From the NCBI GenBank assembly GCA_964485845.1, contig CAZAKP010000003.1:1-43069 (forward strand): a stretch of 43,069 nt of DNA, given 5' to 3'. This DNA is from an uncultured bacterium. Lineage in GTDB: Bacteria > Hydrothermota > Tepidihabitantia > Tepidihabitantales > Tepidihabitantaceae. The translations under genes and the position numbers were made by a program. The notes below the pieces were generated by a model. It did no database searches and had not been told where the DNA came from. It saw nothing but the letters and a program-made list of their open reading frames with translations. Shown one piece after another: positions 2,516 to 32,306 of this stretch. Numbering within the stretch: position 1 is the stretch's first letter; every line of letters starts with the position of its first letter.

Positions 2516-2614
2516 GAACGGAACAGGGATCGAGTGGTCCAGGGATCGGGTGCCGGCGCAGGACGCAGGCCTGGGCCCCAATCGCTGACCCCTAGCCCTT
2601 CGTCCCTCTGCCAG

Positions 2615-2689
2615 TCGGGGAGACTGGATTTGAACCAGCGGCCCCCACGTCCCAAGCGTGGTGCGCTAACCGGGCTGCGCTACTCCCCG
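2615..2689 (-). tRNA. tRNA-Pro (anticodon TGG)
   Basis: The reverse complement folds as CGGGGAG TA GCGC AGCCCGGTTA GCGC A CCACG CTTGGGA CGTGG GGGCC GCTGG TTCAAAT CCAGT CTCCCCG A. All four stems pair. CCA is not encoded. Confidence 0.9.
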
Positions 2690-2841: not shown

Positions 2842-4023
2842 TTAATGTCGGGACCGACGTGGCGGGCGTTCTATGTGCCAATCGGTCAGTAGGTCGTTGG
2901 CGCTTGCGACGACACGTTTACCTGCAAGCAGCTTCACGAACGTCCGGTTCCGAGTTCTGAAACAGGCGAGTCTCGGCTTTCGACAATTCGGGAGCAGGTG
3001 ATAGGGCGGCACAGGACAGAGGCGGCGGCCGCACCCGCGAGCGGAGTGCTGGCTCAGTCGCCCGGGTTCTGCTGCGGAATCCGACGGTGCAGCATTCCTC
3101 TGCGCGAGAACCCGGCCGGGCGATAGCACTCGTTCGATCTCGTGCCAGAACTGCCCGGTCAGGCTGATGCTAAGCCGATACGACGGAACCGCATCGCCAA
3201 GAGCCCAGGCTGCCTGCAGGTACTTCCGGCAGAGGGCCCGGTTGGCAGAGCCCTCCGGGTTGAACATGACCTTTCTGCCAAGCTGAAAGGCCGATTCCAC
3301 TATCAAGGCAGTGGCGGGCGTGGTCGTGACCGGCTCGGCCCGGTCCGCTGATGATTGCTTGAGAAACAGCATGGCCTTGAGGGGCACGGCCTGCTCCACC
3401 GGCCATGATTCGGTCGGGGCCAGCCCATGCAGACGGCTCCAGGTCGGCCAGGGATGGGCCCAGTAACGGCCGTGCACATCGCGCACAACCAAGGTGCAGT
3501 CGTCAGAGAGCGAGCGCCAGGGGCATGGCAGGCGCCGGCTGGCAGTGGTTTTGCCGGCTCCGCTGGGGCCGGCGAGCAGGAAGCCAGCCCCGTCGTGCAA
3601 GGCAAGGGCACCGTGCAGCAGAATTCCTTTTCGAGCAAGCGAATCGGCTGCGACGGCTGAGGCGACACGCTCCATCCTGATTGTCTCGGTGCGTCGGTCC
3701 CGGGTCGGTCCCAGGCGGCAGACAAAACGAGGGCTGGTAGTCCGGCGCGTGCCGCCGGCTTTATCGAAGCCTGATGCCACGTATAACACGCGCCCGCCTT
3801 GCGCCGGGTCGAGCCGCATCACCCGGCCCAAAGTCTCCACCGTCGCTTTTGACTGCTCGTCCAGTGCCCGAATCACCCATCGCTGCCCGTCGGCTAAAGC
3901 AATCCCGAGGTTGGGCGAAGCCGAATACGGCCGAGTCTTGAGCTTCAAGGGCAGAATTCTAGGTGAGCACGCTGGCGAGTCAATGGGCGGCCGATGTCTC
4001 CGGTACTGGATGAAGTACCGCAT
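2842..4023 (-). CDS. Divergent HprK-fold P-loop kinase-like protein (HPr kinase C-terminal-domain-like)
   Basis: The motif GILLHGALALHDGAGFLLAGPSGAGKTTASRRL...SLSDDCTLV resembles the HPr-kinase C-terminal domain with Walker A. It is clearly distinct from the canonical hprK at 15958-16929. ATG 4023 is preferred over TTG 4068. The last ~100 aa are low complexity and Cys-containing. Confidence 0.7.
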   Translation of the reverse strand: MRYFIQYRRHRPPIDSPACSPRILPLKLKTRPYSASPNLGIALADGQRWVIRALDEQSKATVETLGRVMRLDPAQGGRVLYVASGFDKAGGTRRTTSPRFVCRLGPTRDRRTETIRMERVASAVAADSLARKGILLHGALALHDGAGFLLAGPSGAGKTTASRRLPCPWRSLSDDCTLVVRDVHGRYWAHPWPTWSRLHGLAPTESWPVEQAVPLKAMLFLKQSSADRAEPVTTTPATALIVESAFQLGRKVMFNPEGSANRALCRKYLQAAWALGDAVPSYRLSISLTGQFWHEIERVLSPGRVLAQRNAAPSDSAAEPGRLSQHSARGCGRRLCPVPPYHLLPNCRKPRLACFRTRNRTFVKLLAGKRVVASANDLLTDWHIERPPRRSRH

Positions 4024-4143
4024 AGCTCCATCTTCCGGTGGACGCCCGAATCCGACGGCTCGGACCAAAGAAGGAGGCGGGGTCCGGGACCGGATCCCGC
4101 CCGCTCTCCCAGACGGATTGGGTGCCCTGACCCTTGGACGCGC

Positions 4144-6714
4144 CTACTCGATAATGACCTTGGTTGTCTTGATGTCGTCGTCGCCCACGAGCTTGACAAA
4201 GTAGACGCCGGGGTTCAAGCCGTTCGCGTCGAGCCGCGCGGTATTCGTGCCCTCCCGGTAGCCTGCAGTTGCCAGGGGCCTTACGAGCCTGCCGACCGCA
4301 TTGTAGAGGTTTATGTTGACCTTGCATGCCCGCACCAGGGTGTAGGTCAGAAGTCCATGACCACGGAGCGGGTTCGACGACAGGCTGACACGGTTGACGG
4401 CCGCGCCGGGCACCGGTGGCCTGCCTGACTTGAAGTCGATCGGGAAACCGATCCCGGCGACCTCGTCGACGAGCCAGCCGTGGCCGACAATTTCGTCGTC
4501 ATCGGAGGCAAAGTTCCAGCGGACTTTCATGTAGTCGCCGCTTGACACCGGAATTGTGAAAACCGACTGCCGCCAGCCGGATGAGTTGCCGGACCAGCCC
4601 GATGCCCCAAGGGCGATGACCGTACCTTCATAGGTTTGGCCGCTCGATGGAGAAAGCACGCCCCCATCGGTCCAACTGCTGCCATTGTTGGTTGAGTACA
4701 GGTACGAGATGTTACCGCCATCATGGCCGGCCTGGGTGTTGTAGTTGTGCTGGAACGCGATCGCCGGATTGGACTGTGTCACCTCGAATGCCGGTGACGT
4801 CAGTTGGGTATGTGTGTCGTAGTCGTAGTCCCCATCCCGGCCGACGCCCCAGATTGTTTCGTCCATCGGCGGAGGTGCCCAGCCGTTCCAGGTCAGTAGG
4901 CCCCAACTCCAGCCGCCGTCGGTCGACGCGCTGAACTCAGTGTGGTTGTCCTCGTCGAAAAAGTAGATGAAATCGCATCCCTGAAAAATCGCGGTGGCCC
5001 TGTCGTTGCCTGGTGTCACGTCGCCGGCTAGCATCGTCGTGCACTTGGATGTGAAGAGACCGCTCGAAAGCTCGAACGGATAGAACGTGACCACGCGAGT
5101 CTCGCCTGCCTTGAGTCCCCGCAATGTCTGAGTCTTCGAATAGACTTCCGATCCGCCTTTGGTGATGGTGAATGTCGCTTTGAATGAGCGCGGGCCATCG
5201 TTGTCAGCGTCGGCGTGAATCGAGGCCATGGGCGGGATACCCCAGCTCTTCCCGTACGTTTCATCGTTGAGGAAAGACGCCACCGGGCGTTCGATGCTGA
5301 GAGTGCTGATGTCACCGTCAAGCGGCAGAGTGTCCACGACGCGCGCCCAAATTCGATCGCAGCCATCGTAGTCGTACGAGCCGACCACGTCGGTAGGCGA
5401 GTGGTATACGACTATCGCCGTGCCCTCGGCGGGCCCGCAGGCAAGCGCGGGTTTCTGTGCATATCCTCTCGTCGATATGGTGAAGTCTGTTCCGCCCACT
5501 ATCCCGCCTTGCAGGTTGACCCGGCAGCCGAAGATGTCGTAGGTGTTGCCGTCACGGCTGTCATCCCAGGCGACGAAGTAGTCGATACCGTCGAAGGCGG
5601 CAGTTGGCTCCTGCTGAGCACCGGATGCGTTGCAGACCGTGAATTGGCTTTCATGGCTGCCGTCGGTATGAACAAGCTCGCCGTAGATGTTGTAGTCGCT
5701 TCCGGGCAGGTCTTGCCAGACGACGAGGTAGTTGGTGCCGTCAAAATCGATAGCAGGCAGAGGAAAACTGACTGCGGCGCTGGCGATTACTATTCCATCG
5801 GGGTCGGTGACTTCTCCGGTGCCGGCAACCCGCGCCCCGATGACGCCTCTGCTTCCGATCGAGTAGGAGTATTCCTCCCAGACGGCGAGGTAGTTGGCGC
5901 CGTCGGACGCGATCGATGGGTAGTCTGAATAGTAGTCCTCGTTGTAGCCAACAGGTATTGCGTTGGCCTCAATCGTCCCTTCATTGTTTACCAGCGCGCC
6001 GACGATGAGTGAATTGTAGTAGTCTTCAGTGTATTCATCCCAGGCTACGAGAAACTTGTCGCCATTGGAGGCGATCGAAACCTTGTAGTCACACAGACCG
6101 TTGCTCGAGATGGTGCTGGCTATGTTCGTGACTGTGCGGTTCGTGTCCACGAGTGCACCGTGGATGTTGCCGTCATCCCAGTCCATCCAAACGACGAGGT
6201 ACCTCGTGCCATCGAAAGCGACCGCCGGACCTGCGCGGTCATGGTCCGGTGTGCTGGGCGAGATCCGAAAGCTGCTTTGGTCGACGAGCGAACCATCAGC
6301 TTTGACTCGCGTTCCGCGTATTTCGTACGTGCCCATGTCATTCTCCATATACCAGACCACGAGGTAGTTGAGGCCGTCAAAGGCCACGGCGGCATCCGAC
6401 TGATCGACAGGGTAGTCGTTCCAGTATAGGGAATCGGGCGCAGGCATGAACTCAGCGCCGAATGGGCAAGTACCAAGTCTGCGCGGCGTCCCTGGGCGCC
6501 GTCCGGACATTGCCTGCCGGGGCGCCTTGTCGGCACTAAGCCATTGTCTAAGGGCTGTGTGCCGTGCTTCGGGACTGAGTTTTCTCAAACTCTGCAGGAA
6601 TTGCCGACGTTGGGCAGGGATGGTGCCGCGAATCGGCGAGTCTGCGCCAGGACCTGCGAAAGCGAAGGCGAGCAGGCCCGCGGCTGCAAGAAGCAAGAAC
6701 GATTTCTTCGACAT
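4144..6714 (-). CDS. Large secreted repeat protein with Por/T9SS type-A C-terminal sorting domain
   Basis: GGAGG lies 6 nt upstream of ATG 6714, followed by the signal peptide MSKKSFLLLAAAGLLAFAFA. There are about 6-7 modules of ~55 aa (AVAFDGxNYLVVWxD...IxGxRV). The C-terminus ...NLYNAVGRLV...GVYFVKLVGDDDIKTTKVIIE is typical of a T9SS CTD. Confidence 0.85.
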   Translation of the reverse strand: MSKKSFLLLAAAGLLAFAFAGPGADSPIRGTIPAQRRQFLQSLRKLSPEARHTALRQWLSADKAPRQAMSGRRPGTPRRLGTCPFGAEFMPAPDSLYWNDYPVDQSDAAVAFDGLNYLVVWYMENDMGTYEIRGTRVKADGSLVDQSSFRISPSTPDHDRAGPAVAFDGTRYLVVWMDWDDGNIHGALVDTNRTVTNIASTISSNGLCDYKVSIASNGDKFLVAWDEYTEDYYNSLIVGALVNNEGTIEANAIPVGYNEDYYSDYPSIASDGANYLAVWEEYSYSIGSRGVIGARVAGTGEVTDPDGIVIASAAVSFPLPAIDFDGTNYLVVWQDLPGSDYNIYGELVHTDGSHESQFTVCNASGAQQEPTAAFDGIDYFVAWDDSRDGNTYDIFGCRVNLQGGIVGGTDFTISTRGYAQKPALACGPAEGTAIVVYHSPTDVVGSYDYDGCDRIWARVVDTLPLDGDISTLSIERPVASFLNDETYGKSWGIPPMASIHADADNDGPRSFKATFTITKGGSEVYSKTQTLRGLKAGETRVVTFYPFELSSGLFTSKCTTMLAGDVTPGNDRATAIFQGCDFIYFFDEDNHTEFSASTDGGWSWGLLTWNGWAPPPMDETIWGVGRDGDYDYDTHTQLTSPAFEVTQSNPAIAFQHNYNTQAGHDGGNISYLYSTNNGSSWTDGGVLSPSSGQTYEGTVIALGASGWSGNSSGWRQSVFTIPVSSGDYMKVRWNFASDDDEIVGHGWLVDEVAGIGFPIDFKSGRPPVPGAAVNRVSLSSNPLRGHGLLTYTLVRACKVNINLYNAVGRLVRPLATAGYREGTNTARLDANGLNPGVYFVKLVGDDDIKTTKVIIE

Positions 6715-6730
6715 GGTCCTCCTTCCTTGT

Positions 6731-6925
6731 CTAGCTGGGCGATATCCCGGCTTGGCAACCACCGCTGGCTAGGTGGCCCGTGACGCAGGTACCCTGCCAC
6801 TTGTATTCTCGGTAGCCAGCGGCGCTGCCGTTAAGGCCGCATTCTCCGTATGCTCGGTCAGAATCGTGAAGGTGAACGGCTTGCGGAGATTCGTATTCCT
6901 TGCGTTTCCTGGGCTTTTCTTTCAT
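6731..6925 (-). CDS. Small ORF (64 aa), candidate modified-peptide precursor
   Basis: Translation: MKEKPRKRKEYESPQAVHLHDSDRAYGECGLNGSAAGYREYKWQGTCVTGHLASGGCQAGISPS. A strong SD is present (GGGAGGTAGCAAG ATG). The ORF fills the gap between the PqqD-like gene and the next gene on the same strand. Confidence 0.5.
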   Translation of the reverse strand: MKEKPRKRKEYESPQAVHLHDSDRAYGECGLNGSAAGYREYKWQGTCVTGHLASGGCQAGISPS

Positions 6926-7018
6926 CTTGCTACCTCCCGGTGAAGTTCATTTTTCTCGGTTCTTCGTCGGTCGCCAAGCTTCCATTGTTCCTTGTCATGG
7001 TGAGTCACGGGTCGCTAG

Positions 7019-7345
7019 TCATTTTCTGCCTCTTGTCGCCAGACGGGGGTTGCGTGCTGGTATTTCGTGGCCGACAAGACCCTCGTCCGCTAGCGTTCCG
7101 AGCAGCCGGGCAACGTCGTTCACCATGGAACCGGGCGCATCGGGATAGTGACGACGGACTCCGGCGACGATATCGCTGACCGTTCGTCTACCATCTGCAA
7201 GTCCCCAGATGAGGGCTCCGGGTGGACTTACCGCTACGGCCACGCCGGTATCAGGGTTGGCCAGCAGGCTCCAGCCATCCGACCTATTTTGGCAGATTGC
7301 GAGCGGGTTGGGGAATGGCCGCTCTGGCAGAGGCAGCGTAGACAC
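7019..7345 (-). CDS. PqqD-family protein (RiPP recognition element-like)
   Basis: ...SDGWSLLANPDTGVAVAVSPPGALIWGLADGRRTVSDIVAGVRRHYPDAPGSMVNDVARLLGTLADEGLV matches the PqqD pattern. Start is uncertain; GTG 7345 gives 108 aa. The ORF-track start at 7528 would add an Arg/Ser/Pro-rich stretch that does not look coding. Confidence 0.75.
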   Translation of the reverse strand: MSTLPLPERPFPNPLAICQNRSDGWSLLANPDTGVAVAVSPPGALIWGLADGRRTVSDIVAGVRRHYPDAPGSMVNDVARLLGTLADEGLVGHEIPARNPRLATRGRK

Positions 7346-7581
7346 GGAGGCCCTTCGGTGGGCGGAAAGGCAGGAGTGCCGAGCCGGCTCTCTGCTCTTC
7401 GACTTCACATTCCTTGCTGCGATGGTGGGCCTCCGATGAGCGAGAGTGTGCGGAAACGTCCTGGACTCGCCTTTGCGGCGAGCAGGAGAGGAAGACGCGG
7501 CTGCAATTGGTCGCAGTCCGCAGAGCACCTCAGTGTCAAACCCATAAACCGATGCAGGTCGACCTTCCGGGTCGCCTGGGC

Positions 7582-7689
7582 TCAGCCGCCCGCAGGCTTA
7601 GGGAGGACATTTTGCAGCTCCTGGCCCCGGAGCTGTTCGTGGGCTTTTGAGTCCGCGCGGGTCGAGACCCGCCGTAGTCCAGCGGTCAT
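7582..7689 (-). CDS. Possible 35-codon leader ORF at the 5' end of the PqqD operon
   Basis: Translation: MTAGLRRVSTRADSKAHEQLRGQELQNVLPKPAGG. GGGAG lies 4-5 nt upstream of the ATG, and the ATG is about 27 nt downstream of the predicted transcription start. There is no family assignment and it may not be translated. Confidence 0.25.
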   Translation of the reverse strand: MTAGLRRVSTRADSKAHEQLRGQELQNVLPKPAGG

Positions 7690-7722
7690 GTCGCTCCCTG
7701 GCTTAAGCCTTGAATTCTCTGT

Positions 7723-7751
7723 ATTCTATGATTCGCGTTTTGCGTTGTCAA
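7723..7751 (-). promoter_or_regulatory. Sigma70-type promoter of the PqqD / peptide / T9SS-cargo / kinase-like operon
   Basis: The minus strand reads TTGACA-N17-TAGAAT (-35 at 7746-7751, -10 at 7723-7728). Confidence 0.5.
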
Positions 7752-12694: not shown

Positions 12695-15565
12695 GTGCTT
12701 TGGCGCATCGAGATAACCAAGACGACAACCGACCCGGAAGCGAAGGCGCTCGAATCCGACATTCGCGACATAGCGGGCGGAGCGACCGCCGATGTCCGGA
12801 TTACCCGCCTCTACTACCTCGATGGTGACATCGGCAAGCCGGAAGCCGAGCGGATTGCCGCCGAGGTGCTCTGCGACCCGGTCTGCGAGAGCTCCTGCGT
12901 TCGTCCCGCGGTGGTCGCGCCCACCGGCACGGAGGTGTTGTACAATCCTGGAGTGATGGACCCGAGTGTGGAGAGTATCGCCCGCTCGCTCGCCGACCTC
13001 GGGTTCGAGCACGTCGAGGTCCGCACCGGCCGCGCGTATGAGTTCGAGTTCAGCGGCGGCCGGGGCCGGCGCGCCGCCGATTCGATCCGAAACCTGATCG
13101 TCAGGGGGCTCTTGGTCAATCCGATCATCCAGCATGCGGCCAGGCCCGGGGAGCAGGTCTTCGTCCATACGAAGCCGTACCGGTTCAGGAAGAGCGCAGT
13201 GAAGCTGCGCGGGCTTTCCGGGCCGGAGCTCGTGGAGCTTTCCAAACAGGGGCTTCTGGCCTTGAGTCGCGCGGAGATGCGTGCCCTGCAGAAATACTTT
13301 GAGAGGCTGGGCCGCGACCCGACCGATGTTGAGTTGGAGACGTTTGCCCAGACGTGGTCCGAGCACTGCCAGCACAAGACGTTCAAGGGCATGATTGACA
13401 TCGACGGCAGGAAGGTGAAGAATCTGCTCAAGTCGACGGTGTTCAAGCTGACTCAGGAGCTGAACCTGCCGTGGTGCCTATCGGTGTTCCACGACAATTC
13501 AGGCGTAATCGATTTCGACGAACGGTACGGCGTCAGCTTCAAGGTCGAAACGCACAACCACCCTTCCGCACTTGAACCCTACGGAGGAGCGGCAACGGGA
13601 ATCGGTGGAGTCATCCGCGATTGCCTGGGAACCGGGCTCGGGGCGAGGCCGATTCTGAACACCGACGTGTTCTGCTTCGCGCCGATCGACACCCGGTCGG
13701 AGGAGGTCCCGCGCGGCGTTCTCCATCCGCGTCGAGTGATGAAAGGCGTGGTTGCAGGCGTCCGCGACTACGGCAATCGGATGGGCATTCCGACGGCCAA
13801 CGGAGCCGTCTACTTCGACCCGGGCTTCCTCGGTAACCCGCTGGTTTTCTGCGGGACTCTGGGCCTTATTCCTAAGGACAGACTCGTCAAGCAGGTACGG
13901 CCCGGCCAGCAGATTGTGTTGCTCGGGGGAAGAACCGGACGGGACGGCATTCACGGCGTGACTTTTGCCTCGCTGGAATTGCACCAGAAGTCTGAAGAGA
14001 TCTCAGGCGGCGCGGTCCAGATTGGGAACCCGATTGAAGAGAAGAAGGTAGCCGACGTCGTCCTCGCCGCCCGCGACCGGGGTCTGTTCAGCGCCATCAC
14101 CGATTGCGGTGGCGGCGGGCTCTCGTCTGCGGTCGGCGAGCTCGCGAGCGATCAGGGTTGCGAGGTCTGGCTGGACCGCGTGCCGCTGAAGTATGCCGGG
14201 CTGTCACCGGCCGAGATATGGATATCCGAGGCCCAGGAGCGCATGGTCGTCTTTGCCGGGCAGGACCAGGTCAAGGAGCTGCTCGAATTGGCGGAAACGA
14301 ACGACGTCGAGGCCACGGTAATCGGCAGGGTCACAGGCAAGAGCCGTTTGGTGCTCAAGTTCCGCGCGCATCGGGTGGCGGACATCGACATGAAGTTTCT
14401 GCATCGCGGTTGGCGCGGCACGTCCAAGAAGGCGCATTGGCAGCGGCCGGAGACAGCCGACCCTTCGGTGCCGACCGGCCAGGACCTGACCGCCGAGATA
14501 CTCAAGCTGTTGCAGGCGCCGAATATCGCCAGCAAAGAATGGGTGGTCAGGCAGTACGACCACGAGGTACAGGGCACGTCCGGACTGAAGCCGTTCTGCG
14601 GTCAGAGAAACACTGGTCCGAGTGACGCGTGCGTGGTGATGCCGATTCGCGGCTCACTGCGGGCGTGCGTGGTGGCGTGCGGACTGTGCCCGCGGTATGG
14701 ACTCATCGATCCCTACTGGATGGCGGCATCGGCCATCGATGAAGCCCTGCGTAACTGCGTCGCGGTCGGTGTCGACATTGAGCGCGTCGCCCTGCTGGAC
14801 AATTTCTGCTGGGGCAGTCCGGACCGCCCGGACCAGCTCGCCGGGCTGGTGAGGGCCGCCGAGGCGTGCTATGACATCGGCAGGAAGTACCGGGTGCCGT
14901 TTATTTCCGGCAAGGACTCGCTGTACAACGAGTTCAAGAACGAGTCGGGCGAATCACTGCCCATCCCGCCGACTCTGCTTATTTCGGCGGTAGGCGTCAT
15001 CCCGGATGCATCCCGCACAACCACCCCGGATCTGAAGGATGTGGGTTCGTCCGTCTACCTGCTTGGAGAGACACGTGAAGAGCTCGGAGGCAGCGAGTAC
15101 TTCCGTCGGCACCAGGGCCTCGGACGCGAAGTGCCCAAGGTCGATGCGGCGCGCGGACGCCGGACCATGGTCGCCGTCGGTTCAGCCATCCGCAGCGGCA
15201 TTGTTACCGCCTGCCACGACGTTTCTGACGGCGGTCTGGGGATAGCCATGGCCGAAATGTGTTTCGCCGGCGGAATCGGGGCGCGGCTCTCCCTGGACAA
15301 GGTCCCCGGGAGCCAGCGGTTCAAGCGCGACGACTTCCTGCTCTTCAGTGAGTCCAACAGCCGTTTCCTTTGCGAGGTGCCGCCGCGGCAACGCGATGCA
15401 TTCGAAAGCCTGGCCGCAGGCTTGAGGATCCCCTGCCGAGCCATCGGGCGTACGATAGCGGAACCGGAGTTGATAGTCGACGGGTTGCGTGGCGACACGC
15501 TGGTGCGCCTCAGTTTGAGCGAGGCCGAGAGCGCTTGGCGCCGGGCGCTGACCCGTCGCCTCTAG
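12695..15565 (+). CDS. purL: Phosphoribosylformylglycinamidine synthase subunit PurL with fused PurS-like N-terminal domain
   Basis: The PurL signature ...FAQTWSEHCQHKTFKG... and AIR-synthase-like repeats are present. About 185 extra N-terminal residues begin LWRIEITKTTTDPEAKALESDIRDI...DVRITRLYYLDG, which is PurS-like. There is no glutaminase domain. The ORF-track start is 12653. Confidence 0.9.
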   Translation: MLWRIEITKTTTDPEAKALESDIRDIAGGATADVRITRLYYLDGDIGKPEAERIAAEVLCDPVCESSCVRPAVVAPTGTEVLYNPGVMDPSVESIARSLADLGFEHVEVRTGRAYEFEFSGGRGRRAADSIRNLIVRGLLVNPIIQHAARPGEQVFVHTKPYRFRKSAVKLRGLSGPELVELSKQGLLALSRAEMRALQKYFERLGRDPTDVELETFAQTWSEHCQHKTFKGMIDIDGRKVKNLLKSTVFKLTQELNLPWCLSVFHDNSGVIDFDERYGVSFKVETHNHPSALEPYGGAATGIGGVIRDCLGTGLGARPILNTDVFCFAPIDTRSEEVPRGVLHPRRVMKGVVAGVRDYGNRMGIPTANGAVYFDPGFLGNPLVFCGTLGLIPKDRLVKQVRPGQQIVLLGGRTGRDGIHGVTFASLELHQKSEEISGGAVQIGNPIEEKKVADVVLAARDRGLFSAITDCGGGGLSSAVGELASDQGCEVWLDRVPLKYAGLSPAEIWISEAQERMVVFAGQDQVKELLELAETNDVEATVIGRVTGKSRLVLKFRAHRVADIDMKFLHRGWRGTSKKAHWQRPETADPSVPTGQDLTAEILKLLQAPNIASKEWVVRQYDHEVQGTSGLKPFCGQRNTGPSDACVVMPIRGSLRACVVACGLCPRYGLIDPYWMAASAIDEALRNCVAVGVDIERVALLDNFCWGSPDRPDQLAGLVRAAEACYDIGRKYRVPFISGKDSLYNEFKNESGESLPIPPTLLISAVGVIPDASRTTTPDLKDVGSSVYLLGETREELGGSEYFRRHQGLGREVPKVDAARGRRTMVAVGSAIRSGIVTACHDVSDGGLGIAMAEMCFAGGIGARLSLDKVPGSQRFKRDDFLLFSESNSRFLCEVPPRQRDAFESLAAGLRIPCRAIGRTIAEPELIVDGLRGDTLVRLSLSEAESAWRRALTRRL

Positions 15566-15945
15566 ATCTCTATCGCCTGGACCGCGGCCTTTCCCGTTTC
15601 GATGAGAAAAGGGATCAGTTCGGTGAACGACTTCTTGCGGCGGTGATATAGAAACCGCACGAGCATCGCCAGGTTGGTGCCGCTGAGCACGGCGATGTGC
15701 GGGTGTTTGCGCTTGACCGCGACCCCAGCGTTGGCGCAGCTCGTGCCAAGCATGTCCGCAAAGACCACGACGTCGCCTTCGGGCAGGCCCAAGATTGCCT
15801 GTTCGAGCCGGCCGTGAAGCTCGTCCACCGGGCACTCGAGATTGGAGAGTGTGGTCACGCCATCGGTATCCGGCACGATGGCACGCGCCGCCTCCAGCAG
15901 GGCAAGGGGCAGGCTGCCCTGGCCGATGATGACGGCGCAGACCAC
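15562..15945 (-). CDS. PTS EIIA component, mannose/fructose family
   Basis: 127 aa: MVCAVIIGQGSLPLALLEAARAIV...VVVFADMLGTSCANAG...IAVLSGTNLAMLV. This matches the EIIA-Man fold pattern and the gene lies downstream of hprK. Confidence 0.75.
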   Translation of the reverse strand: MVCAVIIGQGSLPLALLEAARAIVPDTDGVTTLSNLECPVDELHGRLEQAILGLPEGDVVVFADMLGTSCANAGVAVKRKHPHIAVLSGTNLAMLVRFLYHRRKKSFTELIPFLIETGKAAVQAIEI

Positions 15946-15957
15946 TGCCGAGCTACC

Positions 15958-16929
15958 TCACTCCTGGTCGTCGGTGATGAAGGGGTCGATTCGCGGGGAC
16001 TTGCTCATTACCGAAGTAAGCGCGTCGTCGAAGACCTTGGCCGGCTGGTAACCGAAGACCTTGAGTATGTGGTTCTTGGCAATCACCTCGAGCACGAGTG
16101 CAAGGTTCTTGCCCGGAATGACCGGGATCGTCACTCGCGGTATCCTGACGCCGAGGATGTCAGTGAGCCGTTCTTCGATGCCGGTCCGTTCATAGTCCAT
16201 GCCCGGTTTCCATTGCACGAGCCTGACTTCGACCTCGATCCGTTTCTGGATACGGATGGCTCGCACCCCATAGAGGCTGTACACGTCAACGATTCCTACT
16301 CCGCGGATTTCGATGTGGTGCGCAAGTTCCGGAGTGCGGGCTGCCGAATAACCCATTACTATGCCGGTGCCGCGGCGCAGCACTTTGACGAGGTCATCGG
16401 CGATCAGCCGATGTCCCCGGTCGACCAGATCCAGCGCGCACTCGGATTTGCCAATGCCTGAATCGCCGGTGATGAGCAGGCCAACTCCGAAGACGTCGAC
16501 GAGCTCCCCGTTGACAAAGTCTTTCGGCGCAAGGCGGTAATCGATGAACGCGGTCAGCGCGTGAATGAACGGCGTGGTGTCCATCGGCGTGAGCAGGATC
16601 GGAACCTGGAAGTCGTCGGCCTCCGTTTTCCAGACATCAGGCGGATTCAGCCCTTTGGTCACGATAACGCAGGGGGGACGCAGCGTCAGGAGCCGGTGCA
16701 CGGCATCGCGCTGCTGTGCAGGAGTCATGGTCGCCAGGTATGACAGCTCGGTACTGCCGACGATCTGGAGGCGTTCGCGCAGGAACACACCGGTATACCC
16801 GGCCAGCGCCATGCCTGGCCGATTGATGTCGCCGGTGGCGACGATACTGGTCGCGAGCCCCTGCTTTCCCGCCACGACCTTCAAACCCCATTCCTCGCGC
16901 TTCTCAGCAGCGAGGTCGGCGACGGACAT
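15958..16929 (-). CDS. hprK: HPr kinase/phosphorylase
   Basis: GELVDVFGVGLLITGDSGIGKSECALDLVDRGHRLIADDLV...IEIRGVGIVDV is the canonical HprK P-loop plus signature. ATG 16929 gives 323 aa; the ORF-track start at 17025 overlaps hpf. Confidence 0.9.
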   Translation of the reverse strand: MSVADLAAEKREEWGLKVVAGKQGLATSIVATGDINRPGMALAGYTGVFLRERLQIVGSTELSYLATMTPAQQRDAVHRLLTLRPPCVIVTKGLNPPDVWKTEADDFQVPILLTPMDTTPFIHALTAFIDYRLAPKDFVNGELVDVFGVGLLITGDSGIGKSECALDLVDRGHRLIADDLVKVLRRGTGIVMGYSAARTPELAHHIEIRGVGIVDVYSLYGVRAIRIQKRIEVEVRLVQWKPGMDYERTGIEERLTDILGVRIPRVTIPVIPGKNLALVLEVIAKNHILKVFGYQPAKVFDDALTSVMSKSPRIDPFITDDQE

Positions 16930-16939
16930 CGGCCGAACG

Positions 16940-17266
16940 TCAGACTCCACTGGGTGGCGGCGGCGCGTGGTTGGGCCGTTTGCGGTCCTGGAACTTGCCC
17001 TGCTGGCGCAGCAGTTGGGCGACAACCTTGTCGATTACGTCGTTGACCGCGATGTACATGTCTTTTCCCTGTCCGGTAGCCGTGAGCACCGCATGACTGA
17101 GATGAACCTTGGCTTCGGCGATATCCTTTGCCCCTTCCTTGAGGAGGACGATTTCGGCCTTGATGATGTGGCTGTTGAAGTGGTCGAGCTTCTTCACTTT
17201 TTCATCCACGTGTGCTTTCAGATACGGCGTGATTTCGAGATGACGTCCAGTGAGCGTTAGGTTCAT
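16940..17266 (-). CDS. hpf: Ribosome hibernation promoting factor (HPF/RaiA family)
   Basis: MNLTLTGRHLEITPYLKAHVDEKVKKLDHFNSHIIKAEIVL...AVLTATGQGKDMYIAVNDVIDKV. GGAGGA lies 4 nt upstream of the ATG. Confidence 0.9.
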   Translation of the reverse strand: MNLTLTGRHLEITPYLKAHVDEKVKKLDHFNSHIIKAEIVLLKEGAKDIAEAKVHLSHAVLTATGQGKDMYIAVNDVIDKVVAQLLRQQGKFQDRKRPNHAPPPPSGV

Positions 17267-17296
17267 AGATTCCTCCTGATGGAAAACCTCTGTATC

Positions 17297-17324
17297 ATCA
17301 TAGGCGCTGCGGACCGATGGTCAA
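17297..17324 (-). promoter_or_regulatory. Sigma70-type promoter of hpf-hprK-EIIA operon
   Basis: The minus strand reads TTGACC (17319-17324), N16, TATGAT (17297-17302). Confidence 0.5.
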
Positions 17325-17452
17325 GCACTCCCTGAATCCGACATGGGATACCCGCGCAAAGACACGGGGCCTGGGGAGAATAACAGGCTCGGGTGATTCT
17401 GTCGGGTTGGTGTTCCAGATGTCTGCTTCGTCGAATGTCGGGTTTGGGCGCA

Positions 17453-18037
17453 TTAGAGTTCGCGCCGGCCCTCAAGCGCGCGCAGGATGGTTTCGGTGTC
17501 GGCAAGGTCGAGGTCGGAACCTACCGGCAGGCCCCGCGCAATCCGGGTGACGCGCACTCCCGCAGTCTTGAGCTGTCCGGCGACGTAGATGGCGGTCGCT
17601 TCTCCCTCGGTCGTCGGATTGGTGGCGATGATCACCTCGCGAACGCCGGATGCGGCCCTTGCCAGCAGCTCCTTTACGTGCAGGTCCTCGGGACCGATGT
17701 TGTCGATCGGTGACAGTATCCCACCCAGCACGTGATAGGCGCCGCGGTGCTGGCCGGATTGCTCCAAGGTAAGGACGTCGGCTGGCTCTTCGACGACACA
17801 GACTACCGAATGATCCCGAGTCGGGTCAGAGCAGATATCACACCGGTCCCCTTCGGTGAGACTGAAGCAGATGGGGCACGGCCGGAGCTTGGAGCTGGCC
17901 TCGATAATTGAATCCGCCATCTCGCGAGCGACCTCGGGCTGCTTGAGGAGGTGAAAAGCGATGCGCTGCGCCGTCTTGCGGCCGATCCCGGGCAGCTTCA
18001 CCAGCGTCGCTACCAGTTGGTCGAGGGAACGCCTCAG
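17453..18037 (-). CDS. recR: Recombination protein RecR (probable CTG start)
   Basis: Contains the KLPGIGRKTAQRIAFHLL HhH motif, a C4 zinc finger (CPICFSLTEGDRCDIC) and a Toprim region. The in-frame sequence upstream of GTG 18001 encodes RRSLDQLVATLV, which is RecR-like N-terminus. AAGGAG lies 5 nt upstream of CTG 18035-18037. Confidence 0.85.
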   Translation of the reverse strand: MRRSLDQLVATLVKLPGIGRKTAQRIAFHLLKQPEVAREMADSIIEASSKLRPCPICFSLTEGDRCDICSDPTRDHSVVCVVEEPADVLTLEQSGQHRGAYHVLGGILSPIDNIGPEDLHVKELLARAASGVREVIIATNPTTEGEATAIYVAGQLKTAGVRVTRIARGLPVGSDLDLADTETILRALEGRREL

Positions 18038-19509
18038 CGATGCTCCTTTTCGTCGACCTCGCCCAGGATGCGGCTGACTCTTTCGCGGGTAGGGTCCGGG
18101 GCCGGTTTCCTCGACAGCTGGACCGCGAGGTCAAGCGGCCGACCGGCGATCTCGGCAAGAATGGCAGCCAGCTGCGATCCGTTTTCTTCAAGTTTCTCGG
18201 CCGCCGACTTCTGCTTTGCCGGGAGCGAGATGGAAAGCACGTCGTCCTTGAGCGACACAGGAGTAGCAAGTTCCAGGAATCCGGCGAGCATCGGCCGATG
18301 GGCGTTGGTGCGAAGTCGCAGTTCGTCCCAGAGCGCGCTCATGGTCAGGGGACCGTCGGCGGCCGCGGGAGTTGCGCATTCGTCCGGTGTCGAGTCCCGG
18401 GGCGCAGCGGCGCCAGATGGACCCGAGCGACCCGATGCCAGCTCGAGCGACATCACTTCGAGCAGCACGCGTGGAAACTGCGTCGAGCCAGCCTGGGTTT
18501 CGTAGGCGGTGATGCCGTGGAGAATCCGTAAGAGGTTACCGCGACCAAATGCCCCGGCCTGACACAGCATGCGCTCGACCTCGTTCGGAAGTAGGCCCAG
18601 GTCACTTTCTCCGCCGCTGACTTCAAGCGCCAGCAGATTGCGGAAGTGCTGCACGACTCCCGTGTAGAACTCGATGTGGTCGTAACCTGACTCGAACAGC
18701 CGGTCGATGAAGTTCATCAGCCCTGGACCATTACCAGCAAGCACGAGGTCCGCATAGTCCGAAAATAACTCCGCCGGCACCAGCCCCAGCAGCTCTTCTA
18801 CGTCTTTTAGCTCGATTCCGTCCGGCCGATATGCCGCCAGCTGGTCGAGGATACCCTCGCCGTCACGGATCGCGCCATCGGCGCGGCGGGCTATCGCCAT
18901 CAGCGCGGAGTCCGAGGCTCTGATACTTTCCCGTCGGGTAAGCCACGTCAGTCGGTCCTTTATCTCGGTCGGCGTCGCCCGACGGAAGTCGAATCGCTGG
19001 CAGCGAGAGACTATGGTCGCAGGTACCTTGTGCGCCTCGGTCGTCGCGAAGACGAACTTCACGTGGGCCGGCGGCTCCTCCAGGGTCTTAAGCAGGGCGT
19101 TGAATGCCGACGGAGAGAGCATGTGAACCTCATCGATGATATAGATCTTGTATCGCCCGGAGCTTGGTGTGTACCTCGCGTTCTCACGCAGTTCGCGTAC
19201 GTCGTCCACGCTGTTATTCGATGCCCCGTCAATTTCGATGACGTCCAAGCTCCGCGAAGCCGCTATCTCAACGCAGAAAGAGCATACGTTGCATGGATCG
19301 ATGGTCGGTCCCTTCTCGCAGTTCAGGCTTTTCGCGAGGATGCGGGCGGTCGTGGTCTTGCCCACGCCCCGCGGTCCGCAGAACAGGTAAGCATTGGCCA
19401 GCCGGTTCCGTTCGATCGCGCGCTTCATCGTGTCGCGGACGTGGTCCTGTACCAGCAGTTCATCAAAGCGCTGCGGCCGGTACTTGAGAGTGAGGACGCT
19501 ACGTGCCAT
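18034..19509 (-). CDS. dnaX: DNA polymerase III subunit gamma/tau
   Basis: YRPQRFDELLVQDHV...YLFCGPRGVGKTTTARILAKSLNCE...CNVCSFC...VIEIDGASNNSVDDVRELRE. AGAGGA lies 8 nt upstream of ATG 19509. Confidence 0.9.
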   Translation of the reverse strand: MARSVLTLKYRPQRFDELLVQDHVRDTMKRAIERNRLANAYLFCGPRGVGKTTTARILAKSLNCEKGPTIDPCNVCSFCVEIAASRSLDVIEIDGASNNSVDDVRELRENARYTPSSGRYKIYIIDEVHMLSPSAFNALLKTLEEPPAHVKFVFATTEAHKVPATIVSRCQRFDFRRATPTEIKDRLTWLTRRESIRASDSALMAIARRADGAIRDGEGILDQLAAYRPDGIELKDVEELLGLVPAELFSDYADLVLAGNGPGLMNFIDRLFESGYDHIEFYTGVVQHFRNLLALEVSGGESDLGLLPNEVERMLCQAGAFGRGNLLRILHGITAYETQAGSTQFPRVLLEVMSLELASGRSGPSGAAAPRDSTPDECATPAAADGPLTMSALWDELRLRTNAHRPMLAGFLELATPVSLKDDVLSISLPAKQKSAAEKLEENGSQLAAILAEIAGRPLDLAVQLSRKPAPDPTRERVSRILGEVDEKEHR

Positions 19510-28141: not shown

Positions 28142-29479
28142 CTACTTCAGCCAGCGGAGGCCGCCGACCCGCTGATAGCCTAGCTGTATCGTCATCAGCG
28201 GTCCGGATATCGAGAGGATCCTCGCCTTGGCAAAGTGGTCGTCCGGGCCCCAGCCGTCAACCGCGGGGCTGAGCCAGAGATAGTATACCTCATCCACGGT
28301 CAGCCGGTTCTCATCCGAGTAGCCGGCGGTGTCGGCGAGCTTGGCGTTCTCGTACACCGTGGTGTTGGCATCCCTGAACACGTTGCCCTTGGAATTCCAG
28401 CCGTACTTGCCCGCGTTGACCAGGAACATCGAGTCATGGTGGGTCTGGTTGTCCGCGTAGTAATCCAGTTTGGGGTTGTTGCCGGAGGCAAATGAATAGG
28501 TTGTGGCCTTGCCGGCGGAGTCGAACCCGAAGGCGTGATGGTGGAAAGTGTCAGAGTCGCTGATGCCGTAGATCGCGACGCTCGTGGTCTCGACAATGCC
28601 CACCGGTATCACTGACGGCGGGCTCTTGCGGCTGCCCTTCGCGGCTCTGACTTCGAGAGCCGCGCACGATCGGGTGATGTCGTAGGTAGTGTCGGTTGTC
28701 TTATGGACGGAATCATCGATCTTGACCTCATAGAAGTCTGCATTCGCCACGGTGCCCCAGGTCAAGCGCAGCGCGGCTCCCTTCAGCAGTGGCACGCAGG
28801 CCACCTCGGGCGTGGCCGGCGCTTCGACATATGTGACTGAGACCGCCAACGGGTTCGACCACGGCGACTCGTGACCGCGTGCATCCTTGGCCCGCACCAT
28901 GACGTTGTACGAGCCGGCGGCGCTGAAAATGTGCTGCTCACGGCAGACTGATTCGCTCGCGACCGGTCCGGCCCAATCCCCGACGGTGTCGCCCCAGTCG
29001 AACTGGAACCACACGCTATCGTCCAAGGGGTGAGTTGTCTTCGTGGTGAACGTCGCGGCGACGCCGGTCGTGCAGGCGGCCGGCCCGGTCGGCGTCTGGG
29101 GCTGGTCCGGCGGCCAAAACGCCACTCCGACGAGGATCGAGTCCGACCACCCTGATTCGGCGAGCTTTGTGTCCCGTGCTTTCACCTTCACGTAGTAGGC
29201 GCCGGAATCCGTGAACTTGTGCGCCCGCGTGACCTCTTCTCCGCTCGCGTACCCATCATCCCATTCGTCGGCGGTCGCGTCGCCCCACGATACCAGGAAG
29301 CCGACGCTCTGGTTCTCGGGGTCAGTGGTCTTGAAAGTGTAAGTCTGAGACTTGCCCGGTACGCCGGTCGCCGGGCCGCTGAGCGTCGGAGTTGCCGGCG
29401 GCTCGTTCTGCTTTCAGCCGGTGAAGAACACGGCGAGGACCAGGCAGCAGACAACAGCGGATGCGGTCGTTCTACGCAT
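28142..29479 (-). pseudogene. PKD-domain lipoprotein gene interrupted by a single in-frame TGA at the lipobox cysteine position
   Basis: GGAGGTAAC precedes ATG 29479. The signal peptide MRRTTASAVVCCLVLAVFFTG is followed by TGA (29414-29416). The same frame then continues KQNEPPATPTLSGPATGVPGKSQTYTFKTTDPENQSVGFLVSWGDATADEWDDGY... into the 349-aa ORF ending at 28142. Two PKD-like modules are present. Confidence 0.65.
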
Positions 29480-30526: not shown

Positions 30527-31606
30527 CTAACGCTGCAGAACGAGGTGCGCGGTGGCGCGCTCTCCACCCGCGTCGCAGCAAACGAAGTACGTCCCTGCGG
30601 GCAGTCGCCGGCCCGCGTTGTCTCTCCCGTCCCAGACCAGGTCCGACTCCCGGTTGACCTCAAGCGTCCGCACCAGCCGTCCTCCCGTGTCGAACACGCC
30701 GGCTCTGGCGAGACAACCTGCCGGGGCATCGCAGGCAAGCCTTGTGAGGTGGACGAACGGATTCGGCTCGGGCCGCGACAGAAATCCACGTCTGGCCGGT
30801 GTAGCGGCGCCGCCATCGAGCACGCCCGTCGCCCCGCCGACCTTGTAGACCCGGTCGGTGGAACTGCTCACGTTCCAGAAGAAGCTGCCATCCCACACCA
30901 GACCGAGCGGGCTCGGCACCTGCCATTCGAAGCTATCGACCACGGTTCCCGCGGGGACAGTCATCTTGTACGCGAATTGGGTCCCCATATCCACGCCCCA
31001 CAGGTAGGTCCCGTCCCAGGCGATACCGAGCATATCGCCGTTCGGAGGGATGAACTGCGAGACGACTGCGCCGGCAACCGTATCCAACTGGTAGATATGT
31101 CCGGTGCCGGTGTAGTCGCTGTGCCAGAGGTACTGGCCATCCCACGCGAGTCCCCACGAATTCGGGTCAGCGGACGCGCTGTCCGGCAGCCGGAAAGACC
31201 GGAGCGCATTGCCGGTGGCCGGGTCGAGCTCGTAGGCCCGGGCGCTTTGCTCGTCCACCATCCAAAGGTGTGCGCCGTCCCAGGTGAGGTCGGCCGGGAA
31301 TACCACCTCTGGAGGCAGGCCGAACACGGTCTCGACAACCCCGGTCGAGCTTAGCCGGTACAGCACTGCCGAATCGCCGCGACTGAGCCAGAAGTGCTCG
31401 CCGTCCCAGGCCAGGCCATTACAGAACGGGCCGGGACAGGTGAACGACCACAGAGTGTCACCGGGCCCAGGCAAGGCCGGGCCGAACACGGCTGATGTCC
31501 GCGTCCCGAAACCATCGGCCTGCTCAAACCTTCCGGCTGCCATCCTGGCTTCGGACGGCGGACAGAAGTGCAGCGCCACTACGCAGACTAAGGCAAAGTG
31601 CTTCAC
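30527..31606 (-). CDS. Secreted beta-propeller-like protein (WDGxxxW repeats) with T9SS C-terminal sorting domain
   Basis: GGAGG lies 7 nt upstream of GTG 31606, followed by the signal peptide KHFALVCVVALHF. There are five repeats: GLAWDGEHFW, DLTWDGAHLW, GLAWDGQYLW, GIAWDGTYLW, GLVWDGSFFW. The CTD reads ..EPNPFVHLTRL..GVFDTGGRLVRTL..LPAGTYFV... Confidence 0.8.
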   Translation of the reverse strand: MKHFALVCVVALHFCPPSEARMAAGRFEQADGFGTRTSAVFGPALPGPGDTLWSFTCPGPFCNGLAWDGEHFWLSRGDSAVLYRLSSTGVVETVFGLPPEVVFPADLTWDGAHLWMVDEQSARAYELDPATGNALRSFRLPDSASADPNSWGLAWDGQYLWHSDYTGTGHIYQLDTVAGAVVSQFIPPNGDMLGIAWDGTYLWGVDMGTQFAYKMTVPAGTVVDSFEWQVPSPLGLVWDGSFFWNVSSSTDRVYKVGGATGVLDGGAATPARRGFLSRPEPNPFVHLTRLACDAPAGCLARAGVFDTGGRLVRTLEVNRESDLVWDGRDNAGRRLPAGTYFVCCDAGGERATAHLVLQR

Positions 31607-31736
31607 AACATATCCTCCTATCACTGACCGTTGTCCGACCTGGCGGGTCCAGGCACAAGTGGGCGCAATTGGGCTGTGGCTCGATGTGCCTTTCCGGCCA
31701 TCCGGAAATATGCGAGTGTTCCCATGGAGCCTGGGC

Positions 31737-32306
31737 TCAGAACCGGTACAGCCGGGTATGGCAGGCAAGCTCGGCCTTGGCGAGGATGTGGCCGGCGGCG
31801 GCCTCTTCTATTTCGGCTGGGCCGGTCGGCAGGAAGGTGCATGACACCGTCGTATCGAGTGCGTAGAGGGCAAACACAAAGCGGTGTGTCCGGCGGCCCG
31901 GTCGGCGCAGCCCAACATAGCTGCAGCAGCCGGTTCCCGCGTCCGCGCCGTGGCTGCCGGCGCCCTCGGCAAGATAGCGTGTATCGCCGGGAAGGTTGAG
32001 CGCGAGCCAGTGTGTCCCGAATTCCCCTGCTCCTGATGCCTCGACTTCGTACAGGATAAGCGCGAACCAACGGGTCGAATCGGGCACATTGGTCCACTCC
32101 AGCGGAGGCGAGGGCGGTGACCCGAGGGGGTCGGCATAATAGTCGGGTACGGTGCCGCCGTGATGGAATGCCGGGCTGGACAGAACCATCGGCGGCTTCC
32201 GGAGTCTCACGATTGAGGTCGTCGTCTCGCCGCCACAGCCGAATGGCAGGAGAACGGCGACCGCGCACAACCCGATGCCAGCGACGTCGCGGGGGCAGGC
32301 CTTCAC
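31737..32306 (-). CDS. YbhB/YbcL (PEBP / Raf-kinase-inhibitor-like) family lipoprotein
   Basis: Lipobox LLPFGCGG. The pattern ...SPPLEWTNVPDSTRWFALILYE...THWLALNLPGD...RFVFALYALD is typical of PEBP. Confidence 0.85.
   Translation of the reverse strand: MKACPRDVAGIGLCAVAVLLPFGCGGETTTSIVRLRKPPMVLSSPAFHHGGTVPDYYADPLGSPPSPPLEWTNVPDSTRWFALILYEVEASGAGEFGTHWLALNLPGDTRYLAEGAGSHGADAGTGCCSYVGLRRPGRRTHRFVFALYALDTTVSCTFLPTGPAEIEEAAAGHILAKAELACHTRLYRF

Follow-up and report, generated by a model that had tools for sequence, protein, structure and literature searches.

A minus-strand gene module in a 43-kb window is the subject of this analysis; the window is the whole 43,069-nt stretch of contig CAZAKP010000003.1, from an uncultured bacterium of the Hydrothermota. 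Its genes encode a PqqD-family protein, a small Cys-containing peptide, a surface protein sorted by the type IX secretion system (T9SS), and a P-loop protein with remote similarity to HPr kinase/phosphorylase (HprK/P). The PqqD-family and P-loop proteins match members of the SynChlorMet (SCM) cassette. This cassette, reportedly the work of Haft, is a computationally defined set of ScmD (TIGR04248), ScmC (TIGR04249), ScmE (TIGR04250), and ScmF (TIGR04251), the last two being radical S-adenosylmethionine (SAM)/SPASM enzymes. To our knowledge, neither a substrate nor a product has been assigned to this orphan cassette since it was defined. The layout of the locus is as follows.

7723–7751, minus strand: sigma-70-like promoter of the PqqD-peptide-T9SS unit, TTGACA(ACG)-N17-TAGAAT, matching the consensus at 11 of 12 positions
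7409–7722, minus strand: non-coding, conserved 5′ leader of about 300 nt, from the promoter to the PqqD gene, seen in an eight-locus alignment
7019–7408, minus strand: PqqD-family, ScmD-like protein, putatively for leader-peptide recognition; PF05402 at 45 bits; probable start codon GTG at 7408
6731–6925, minus strand: predicted SCM-type precursor peptide of 64 aa from a conserved family; leader YESPQAVHL; three conserved Cys
4144–6714, minus strand: T9SS-sorted surface protein of 856 aa, with a signal peptide, a 7-bladed propeller, beta-sandwich domains, and a Por_Secre_tail C-terminal domain
3956–3983, minus strand: second promoter-like site, TTGACT-N16-TAGAAT, matching at 10 of 12 positions, directly upstream of the ScmC gene
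2842–3948, minus strand: short-form ScmC, an HprK-like P-loop protein; TIGR04249 at 164.3 bits; probable start codon TTG at 3948
2614–2689, minus strand: tRNA-Pro(TGG), identified by ARAGORN, the downstream boundary of the module

The initial annotation placed a PqqD-family protein at 7019–7345, and the family assignment holds: the open reading frame (ORF) scores 45 bits on PF05402, above the gathering threshold of 23.4, and covers the full domain. The real start is probably the GTG at 7408 rather than position 7345; it gives a protein of 129 aa and aligns with the GTG, TTG, or ATG starts of homologues called at 122–143 aa. The top NCBIfam match is ScmD, at 50 bits, under the cutoff of 100. 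A local profile hidden Markov model (HMM) gives the first PqqD of full cassettes from candidate division WOR-3 scores of 126–141 bits, and the window PqqD is orthologous to those proteins. The ratio of nonsynonymous to synonymous substitution rates (dN/dS) of the gene is 0.22. PqqD-type recognition elements (RREs) of pathways for ribosomally synthesized peptides with post-translational modifications (RiPPs) have an established role in binding leader peptides.

The small ORF had been picked out for its strong Shine–Dalgarno sequence, and GGGAGGT is indeed found 7 nt 5′ of its ATG. Its product matches no known family model. A word-indexed search with the window peptide returned just two relatives; the wider family was found by an exhaustive HMM search, which gave 21 representative clusters at E ≤ 0.001. 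Within the window, the local peptide HMM has a single match, at 6734–6946. The family has a leader of the form YE[APS]PQA[IV]xLxDxDRA[YF]GxC and an invariant core, CVTGxxAxxGC. In the window peptide, the leader is YESPQAVHL, the core contains CGLNG, CVTG, and CQAG, and the conserved Cys residues are those in GxC, CVTG, and GCxAG. The peptide dN/dS of 0.105 (window versus locus L040; related loci are given L numbers) is the lowest among the four genes.

A leader motif KYExPxx[IV]xL followed by a Cys-rich core also occurs in small ORFs that adjoin canonical SCM cassettes of other phyla, and the leader (YE-x-P-x-A-[IV]-x-L) and Cys-x-x-Gly motifs of the window peptide are found in L010–L018, L003, and L043–L045. 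Gly stands at position +3 of Cys for 39 of the 48 Cys of canonical cores and 50 of the 55 Cys of T9SS-linked cores, at an overall Gly frequency of 0.20. Since the leader motif and the Cys-x-x-Gly core are held in common with ORFs at canonical SCM cassettes, the window peptide is, by these motifs, an SCM-type precursor. This leader/core criterion is proposed here from the canonical loci and lies outside the NCBIfam definition of SCM. The candidate precursors at canonical cassettes are L014 6250–6642, L017 9531–9806, L018 9774–9977, L012 1840–2079, L011 423–701, and L010 2474–2779; no NCBIfam model matched the L014 candidate, the sole one scanned.

The P-loop protein had been described as an HprK-fold protein at 2842–4023 with the motif GPSGAGKTT. 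The Walker motif and a remote similarity to HprK/P stand, and the family is ScmC: the protein scores 164.3 bits on TIGR04249 (cutoff 125), with residues 100–300 on model positions 92–292 of 292, and no match of the window ScmC to Pfam Hpr_kinase_C (PF07475) or Hpr_kinase_N was found. There are 528 detectable homologues, the named ones nearly all from WOR-3, and PF27840:ScmC is the precomputed assignment on homologues of the window protein. The start is more likely the TTG at 3948 (368 aa), where orthologous proteins also begin, than the ATG at 4023 (393 aa). Across 29 aligned homologues, residues H137, G157, K158, T160, D174, and D175 are invariant, comprising a His, the Walker A motif, and an Asp-Asp pair. 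The ScmC profile aligns to HprK/P in PDB entry 1ko7 at E = 0.004, locally and weakly, over the segment LHG...GxSGxGKS...DD, and an hhalign comparison with the window's own HprK gives E = 2e-4, a remote similarity. A Foldseek search of the PDB with the AlphaFold2 (AF2) model of ScmC returned no match at E ≤ 0.001. ScmC is regarded here as a putative HprK-like P-loop enzyme, a reading supported by motifs and not by fold. Its dN/dS is 0.22–0.24.

Many ScmC homologues are fusions of about 500 aa with an S26 signal-peptidase-like domain, and the window ScmC is a short form lacking it. In the Aminicenantes cassette (L014 9500–11116), S26 is N-terminal to ScmC; in the WOR-3 long forms (e.g., L003 14470–16008), it interrupts the protein, separating the ScmC core from a conserved C-terminal tail. 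The two layouts look like independent fusions, which would point to a leader-peptidase role. Elsewhere in the window, a genuine HprK/P is encoded at 15958–17025 (minus strand), with Hpr_kinase_C at 190 bits and Hpr_kinase_N at 106 bits and an EIIA-Man-like gene adjoining it (15562–17025). By these domain matches, the organism has a normal HPr kinase distinct from ScmC.

The description of the 856-aa product as a T9SS-sorted repeat protein is borne out. Residues 780–856 match Por_Secre_tail PF18962 with 31.2 bits (gathering threshold 27) and TIGR04183 with 37.9 bits (cutoff 23), and the N-terminus, MSKKSFLLLAAAGLLAFAFAG, is a signal peptide by inspection, which gives the protein both the N-terminal signal and the C-terminal sorting domain of a T9SS type A cargo. 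Seven FDGxxYLVVW repeats are modeled by AF2 as a 7-bladed beta-propeller (residues ~85–465), with a predicted local distance difference test (pLDDT) of roughly 80–90. Foldseek with this model retrieves generic 7-bladed propellers (GH145, PL42, CylK, and peptidase S9 propellers) and no functional lead. The repeat family is very large, having more than 2,430 homologues, mostly T9SS proteins of WOR-3. Other probable surface proteins of the window, with PKD or FlgD_ig domains, lie at 28142–29191, 30527–31768, and 38741–40162 (minus strand), none of them behind a peptide gene.

The gene context was read for eight full-length homologues of the T9SS protein, and every one of them lies directly 3′ of a peptide gene. 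The gap between the peptide stop and the T9SS start is about 0–25 nt in most loci and 16 nt in the window, and the pair is kept down to about 40% peptide identity. In L045, there are two tandem peptide-T9SS pairs, which indicates that the pair duplicates as a unit; similar repeats are seen in L037 and L041. The pair is also retained where ScmC (L040) or PqqD (L035) is missing. Literature searches gave no report that links PqqD to T9SS, nor one of such a peptide-propeller pairing. This one-to-one pairing of a precursor peptide with a T9SS propeller is a new element.

The genes had been assigned to one minus-strand transcription unit. The promoter at 7723–7751 is supported, and its TTGACAACG box is identical across ten related loci; TTGACAACG followed, at N14 spacing, by TAnAnT is the same in the window, L007, L008, L029, L031, L034, L035, L036/L042, and L040. 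The second promoter-like site, TTGACT-N16-TAGAAT, is also present in L001, L005, L008, and L033, each time ending 6–7 nt before the ScmC start codon (7 nt in the window). Because this conserved site abuts the ScmC start, ScmC is probably translated from the TTG at 3948 on its own leaderless transcript, and the locus strictly speaking comprises more than one transcription unit.

The ~300-nt leader after the first promoter is conserved in 8–10 related loci, with a mean column identity of 60% in the eight-locus alignment and invariant blocks that include GAAAGGT and CTGCG...GCAG. The region 7409–7751 may act as a regulatory RNA or contain an operator. A structured RNA was considered for the leader and set aside, the RNAalifold covariation term being 0.02 kcal/mol and Rfam giving no match. 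A small ORF was likewise rejected, as substitutions lack a three-base periodicity; a +1-frame ORF whose stop overlaps the PqqD start (GTGA) was judged incidental.

The distribution of ScmC relatives divides as follows. Those in Aminicenantes, Anaerolineales, Rokubacteria, and other groups sit in canonical SCM cassettes, exemplified by L014, in which ScmD (104 bits), ScmE (574), ScmF (516), and ScmC (153) all score over cutoff. A scan of the genome collection with the ScmC profile gave at least 17 loci, and among the matches listed, none was from the T9SS-linked clade of the window. In the WOR-3-like long-form loci L003, L043, and L044, two PqqD genes, a precursor, ScmC-S26, NTP_transf_5, an ABC exporter, and radical SAM/SPASM genes are found, the latter numbering two each in L043 and L044 and at least one in L003, a locus that ends inside the first. 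The window clade has a different order, namely promoter, leader, PqqD, peptide, T9SS propeller (at times joined by a larger paralogue), short ScmC, and, in many cases, NTP_transf_5. The same arrangement, or at least part of it on short contigs, is seen in L005, L007, L008/L027, L028, L031, L033, L036/L042, L041, and contig P0161. Like L040, these loci have no radical SAM gene within reach, so that at least ten related loci show PqqD, the small Cys peptide, and the embedded T9SS cargo, usually with the HprK-like protein, and no radical SAM or lasso gene, in support of the initial annotation. In L001, whose ScmC is the closest relative (68% identity), an IS30-like transposase (2975–3970) stands where PqqD, the peptide, and the T9SS gene would be, and ScmC and its own promoter are kept. 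In L042, a defense-type island (14287–19358) lies between the T9SS genes and ScmC; it encodes an AAA_21 ATPase with DUF4276 (PARIS-like), an FRG-domain protein, and GmrSD.

The statement that no known RiPP core enzyme is encoded in the window also holds. Pfam scans of the 28 other major ORFs found no radical SAM, SPASM, YcaO, lasso cyclase, or lanthionine synthetase domain; no ORF in the window has an N-terminal CxxxCxxC; and ScmE and ScmF are absent within the 43 kb. Housekeeping genes were found in these scans: those for PurL, the genuine HprK/P, RecR, DnaX, GyrA, AddAB-like nucleases, and AspRS.

All four genes of the module have dN/dS values of 0.10–0.33, indicating purifying selection. 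Because the genes are intact and under purifying selection and the arrangement recurs in at least ten loci, a decayed fragment is all but ruled out, and the window-clade architecture is, as far as these sequences tell, a stable derived variant. The initial annotation had held that the module would be such a fragment if homologous pairs always sat beside a lasso cyclase or a radical SAM gene. More distant ScmC/ScmD pairs do adjoin two radical SAM/SPASM genes, and the window clade does not; in that clade, loci lacking radical SAM genes recur, with genes under purifying selection. A decayed, non-functional SCM remnant that has lost its core enzymes is accordingly given hardly any credence and is largely refuted: ScmE, ScmF, the S26 domain, and the exporter of full cassettes are all missing, and L001 and L042 do show a replaced and a split module, but the four ORFs are intact with the dN/dS values given above, neither the catalytic motifs of ScmC nor the Cys of the peptide vary, and both promoters and the architecture are conserved.

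With respect to the SCM cassette, the locus agrees in having a ScmC over the trusted cutoff, a PqqD with ScmD as its best match, and a precursor with a common leader and Cys-x-x-Gly core. It differs in lacking both radical SAM/SPASM enzymes, so that two of the four defining features fail, and its ScmD is at half its cutoff. The window ScmC is without the S26 domain of L014, L003, L043, and L044, the ABC exporter usual in full cassettes is missing, and in the window clade one or two T9SS propeller genes stand between the precursor and ScmC. The proposal that this was an undescribed cassette of its own kind gives way to a derivative of SynChlorMet, the kinase-like protein being ScmC and the PqqD ScmD-like.

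We propose, with moderate confidence, that the locus derives from the SCM RiPP-like cassette and is a T9SS-linked form specific to one lineage, probably candidate division WOR-3, in which PqqD and ScmC would serve in peptide modification and ScmE/F would act in trans, the module being a satellite. In L045, two peptide-T9SS pairs, a short ScmC, and NTP_transf_5 are directly followed by a full cassette, which comprises a canonical precursor, a long ScmC, and two genes each for PqqD and radical SAM proteins. Given this module beside a full cassette and the retention of the Cys-x-x-Gly core, a satellite of an SCM system is the most economical reading, and the radical SAM chemistry may be supplied in trans.

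The proposed sequence of events is as follows. PqqD, in keeping with the established role of its type, would bind the leader motif and present the peptide to ScmC. The conserved HprK/P-type residues suggest that ScmC would use a nucleotide triphosphate, transferring phosphate or another nucleotide-derived group to a hydroxyl of the core. The likeliest target would be the invariant Thr of CVTG or a neighboring Ser; the C-terminus is an unlikely one. NTP_transf_5, present in many relatives, may extend the ScmC modification as a second step. The three Cys-x-x-Gly sites would most likely be cross-linked, as thioethers, by enzymes of the ScmE/F type with genes at another place in the genome, which perhaps also encodes the peptidase and exporter. 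The peptide and the downstream propeller protein would form a co-expressed functional pair.

Several points weigh against the proposal of an SCM satellite. ScmE and ScmF were not found within the 43 kb of the window, nor in flanks of 10 kb each in L007, L008, L040, and L042. Within 10 kb, L040 lacks ScmC, and neither L035 nor L045 has a PqqD gene upstream, so the module is not rigidly one of four genes. The AF2 model of the ScmC core, built from the 29-sequence alignment, is unreliable, with a pLDDT under 50, which leaves weak sequence similarity as the basis for an HprK fold; we know of no ScmC with a known biochemical activity. Literature searches gave no paper on the SCM cassette or ScmC, and no experimental characterization was found. 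Finally, the peptide is without a signal peptide and the locus without an exporter, which makes the route of a cytoplasmic peptide to a T9SS cargo a difficulty.

An alternative that we regard as unlikely, and that comes closest to the initial annotation, is a self-contained minimal pathway in which PqqD recruits the peptide and ScmC is the sole modifier, by a paeninodin-type phosphorylation, with no radical SAM chemistry anywhere. It would account for the lack of a radical SAM gene in the 43-kb window and in the ~20-kb neighborhoods of at least six related loci, for the retention of PqqD and ScmC under purifying selection, and for the HprK/P-like catalytic motifs that ScmC keeps. In the paeninodin-type lasso clusters, an HprK-like kinase acts on the C-terminal Ser of the precursor, and a kinase together with a nucleotidyltransferase is the pairing of phosphorylated lasso peptide clusters; NTP_transf_5 lies behind ScmC in relatives of the window locus. 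The C-terminus of the peptide, however, varies in length and sequence and ends in Ser in just 3 of 16 family members, which removes the basis for the proposed C-terminal phosphorylation of a Ser-terminal peptide. Self-sufficiency, too, fits poorly with the L045 module, which is contiguous with ScmE- and ScmF-like genes in a complete SCM cassette, and with a core that keeps the Cys-x-x-Gly of radical-SAM-associated SCM precursors. Moreover, ScmC has no Hpr_kinase_C match and scores 17.7 bits on HprK_rel_A, for which the cutoff is 200.

Paeninodin-type clusters share with the locus a PqqD-type RRE, an HprK-like P-loop protein, a small precursor, and, in the relatives, NTP_transf_5. In contrast, the window ORFs include no lasso cyclase or B2 protease, the peptide family does not conserve a C-terminal Ser, neither its leader nor its core is related to lasso precursors, and ScmC is of another family. 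The HPr-rel-A system (TIGR04352 with a PqqD-family partner) has the same general triad of PqqD, HprK-like protein, and nucleotidyltransferase, but at the score just given, the window ScmC is not a member of TIGR04352. HprK/P itself shares the local motif h-H-G...G-x-G-h-h-h-x-G-x-S-G-x-G-K-[ST]...D-D with ScmC and differs in its N- and C-terminal domains; the window ScmC matches neither Hpr_kinase_C nor Hpr_kinase_N. Judged by its gene content, the locus would work like an RRE-dependent RiPP pathway homologous to SCM and is not a lasso or HPr-rel-A system or, going by the domain matches, an HprK/P one.

A further alternative concerns the T9SS gene alone. It may have been a passenger, an abundant WOR-3 surface-protein gene that was inserted once in an ancestral cassette and inherited with no functional link to the peptide. 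The size of the propeller family makes such an insertion conceivable, the related loci share descent, so that synteny among them carries no independent weight, the propeller fold offers no functional clue, and no exporter is at hand to carry the peptide to the cell surface. Yet a passenger would hardly be expected to stay within about 0–25 nt of the peptide gene in most loci while the peptide diverges to about 40% identity, to be duplicated together with it (L045, and similarly L037 and L041), to persist with it when ScmC (L040) or PqqD (L035) is gone, and to be linked to it in eight of eight full-length homologues. We consider the passenger explanation rather improbable.

The pairing also brings to mind enzymes in which a small subunit is joined to a propeller. 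In quinohemoprotein amine dehydrogenase, the radical SAM/SPASM enzyme QhpD cross-links the small subunit QhpC, which after export joins the beta-propeller subunit QhpB; methylamine dehydrogenase consists of a light chain and a propeller heavy chain. By analogy only, the module resembles these in the genetic pairing of a small, Cys-containing, RiPP-like peptide with an extracytoplasmic 7-bladed propeller, and the parent SCM cassette of the window has SPASM enzymes and an ABC exporter, as the QhpC system does. The window differs in having no heme subunit, QhpD, QhpE, QhpF, or QhpG and no evidence of a cofactor, its propeller belongs to a T9SS cargo that has adhesin-like domains at the C-terminus, and the likeness is drawn without sequence homology. 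It is tempting, as a conjecture that we hold to be improbable as it stands, to suggest that the peptide is a dedicated small partner of the downstream propeller, either as a cross-linked subunit or as a ligand attached covalently or by tight binding, rather than a diffusible natural product. It would mature in the cytoplasm through PqqD, ScmC, and trans-encoded SPASM enzymes and be joined to the propeller outside the cytoplasm. The missing signal peptide and exporter in the locus weigh against the analogy with a subunit cross-linked to a propeller.

At its downstream boundary, the module is followed by tRNA-Pro, and the order ScmC, tRNA-Pro, tRNA-Arg is also found in L001 and L005, where an intact tRNA-Pro and tRNA-Arg(TCT) are followed by Ham1. 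Within 214–2689 of the window, a helix-turn-helix protein and a tyrosine integrase (1357–2463) lie against a degraded tRNA (2448–2515; Rfam 26.4 bits, below the gathering threshold) beside the intact tRNA-Pro. From this arrangement, an integrative element probably inserted in the tRNA-Arg of the window. Truncation of the cassette by the integrase was considered and rejected, the order of ScmC and the two tRNAs being ancestral (L001, L005) and the integrase lying beyond the tRNAs.

For the SCM family, the analysis proposes a precursor family for an orphan cassette, defined by a common leader motif and a Cys-x-x-Gly core. The window clade offers a natural dissection of that cassette, since it keeps the recognition protein, the precursor, and ScmC, having shed the radical SAM enzymes along with the peptidase domain and exporter; the role of the HprK-like ScmC is made testable with three or four small genes. 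The pairing of a RiPP-like precursor with a T9SS propeller is predicted by no known RiPP logic. If functional, it would connect the maturation of a peptide with the biology of surface proteins in an uncultivated phylum. If the peptide were indeed a partner of the propeller, every T9SS paralogue that has a peptide of its own upstream would form with it a surface machine of two components, and RiPP chemistry would have a use not seen before, in the building of T9SS cargo.

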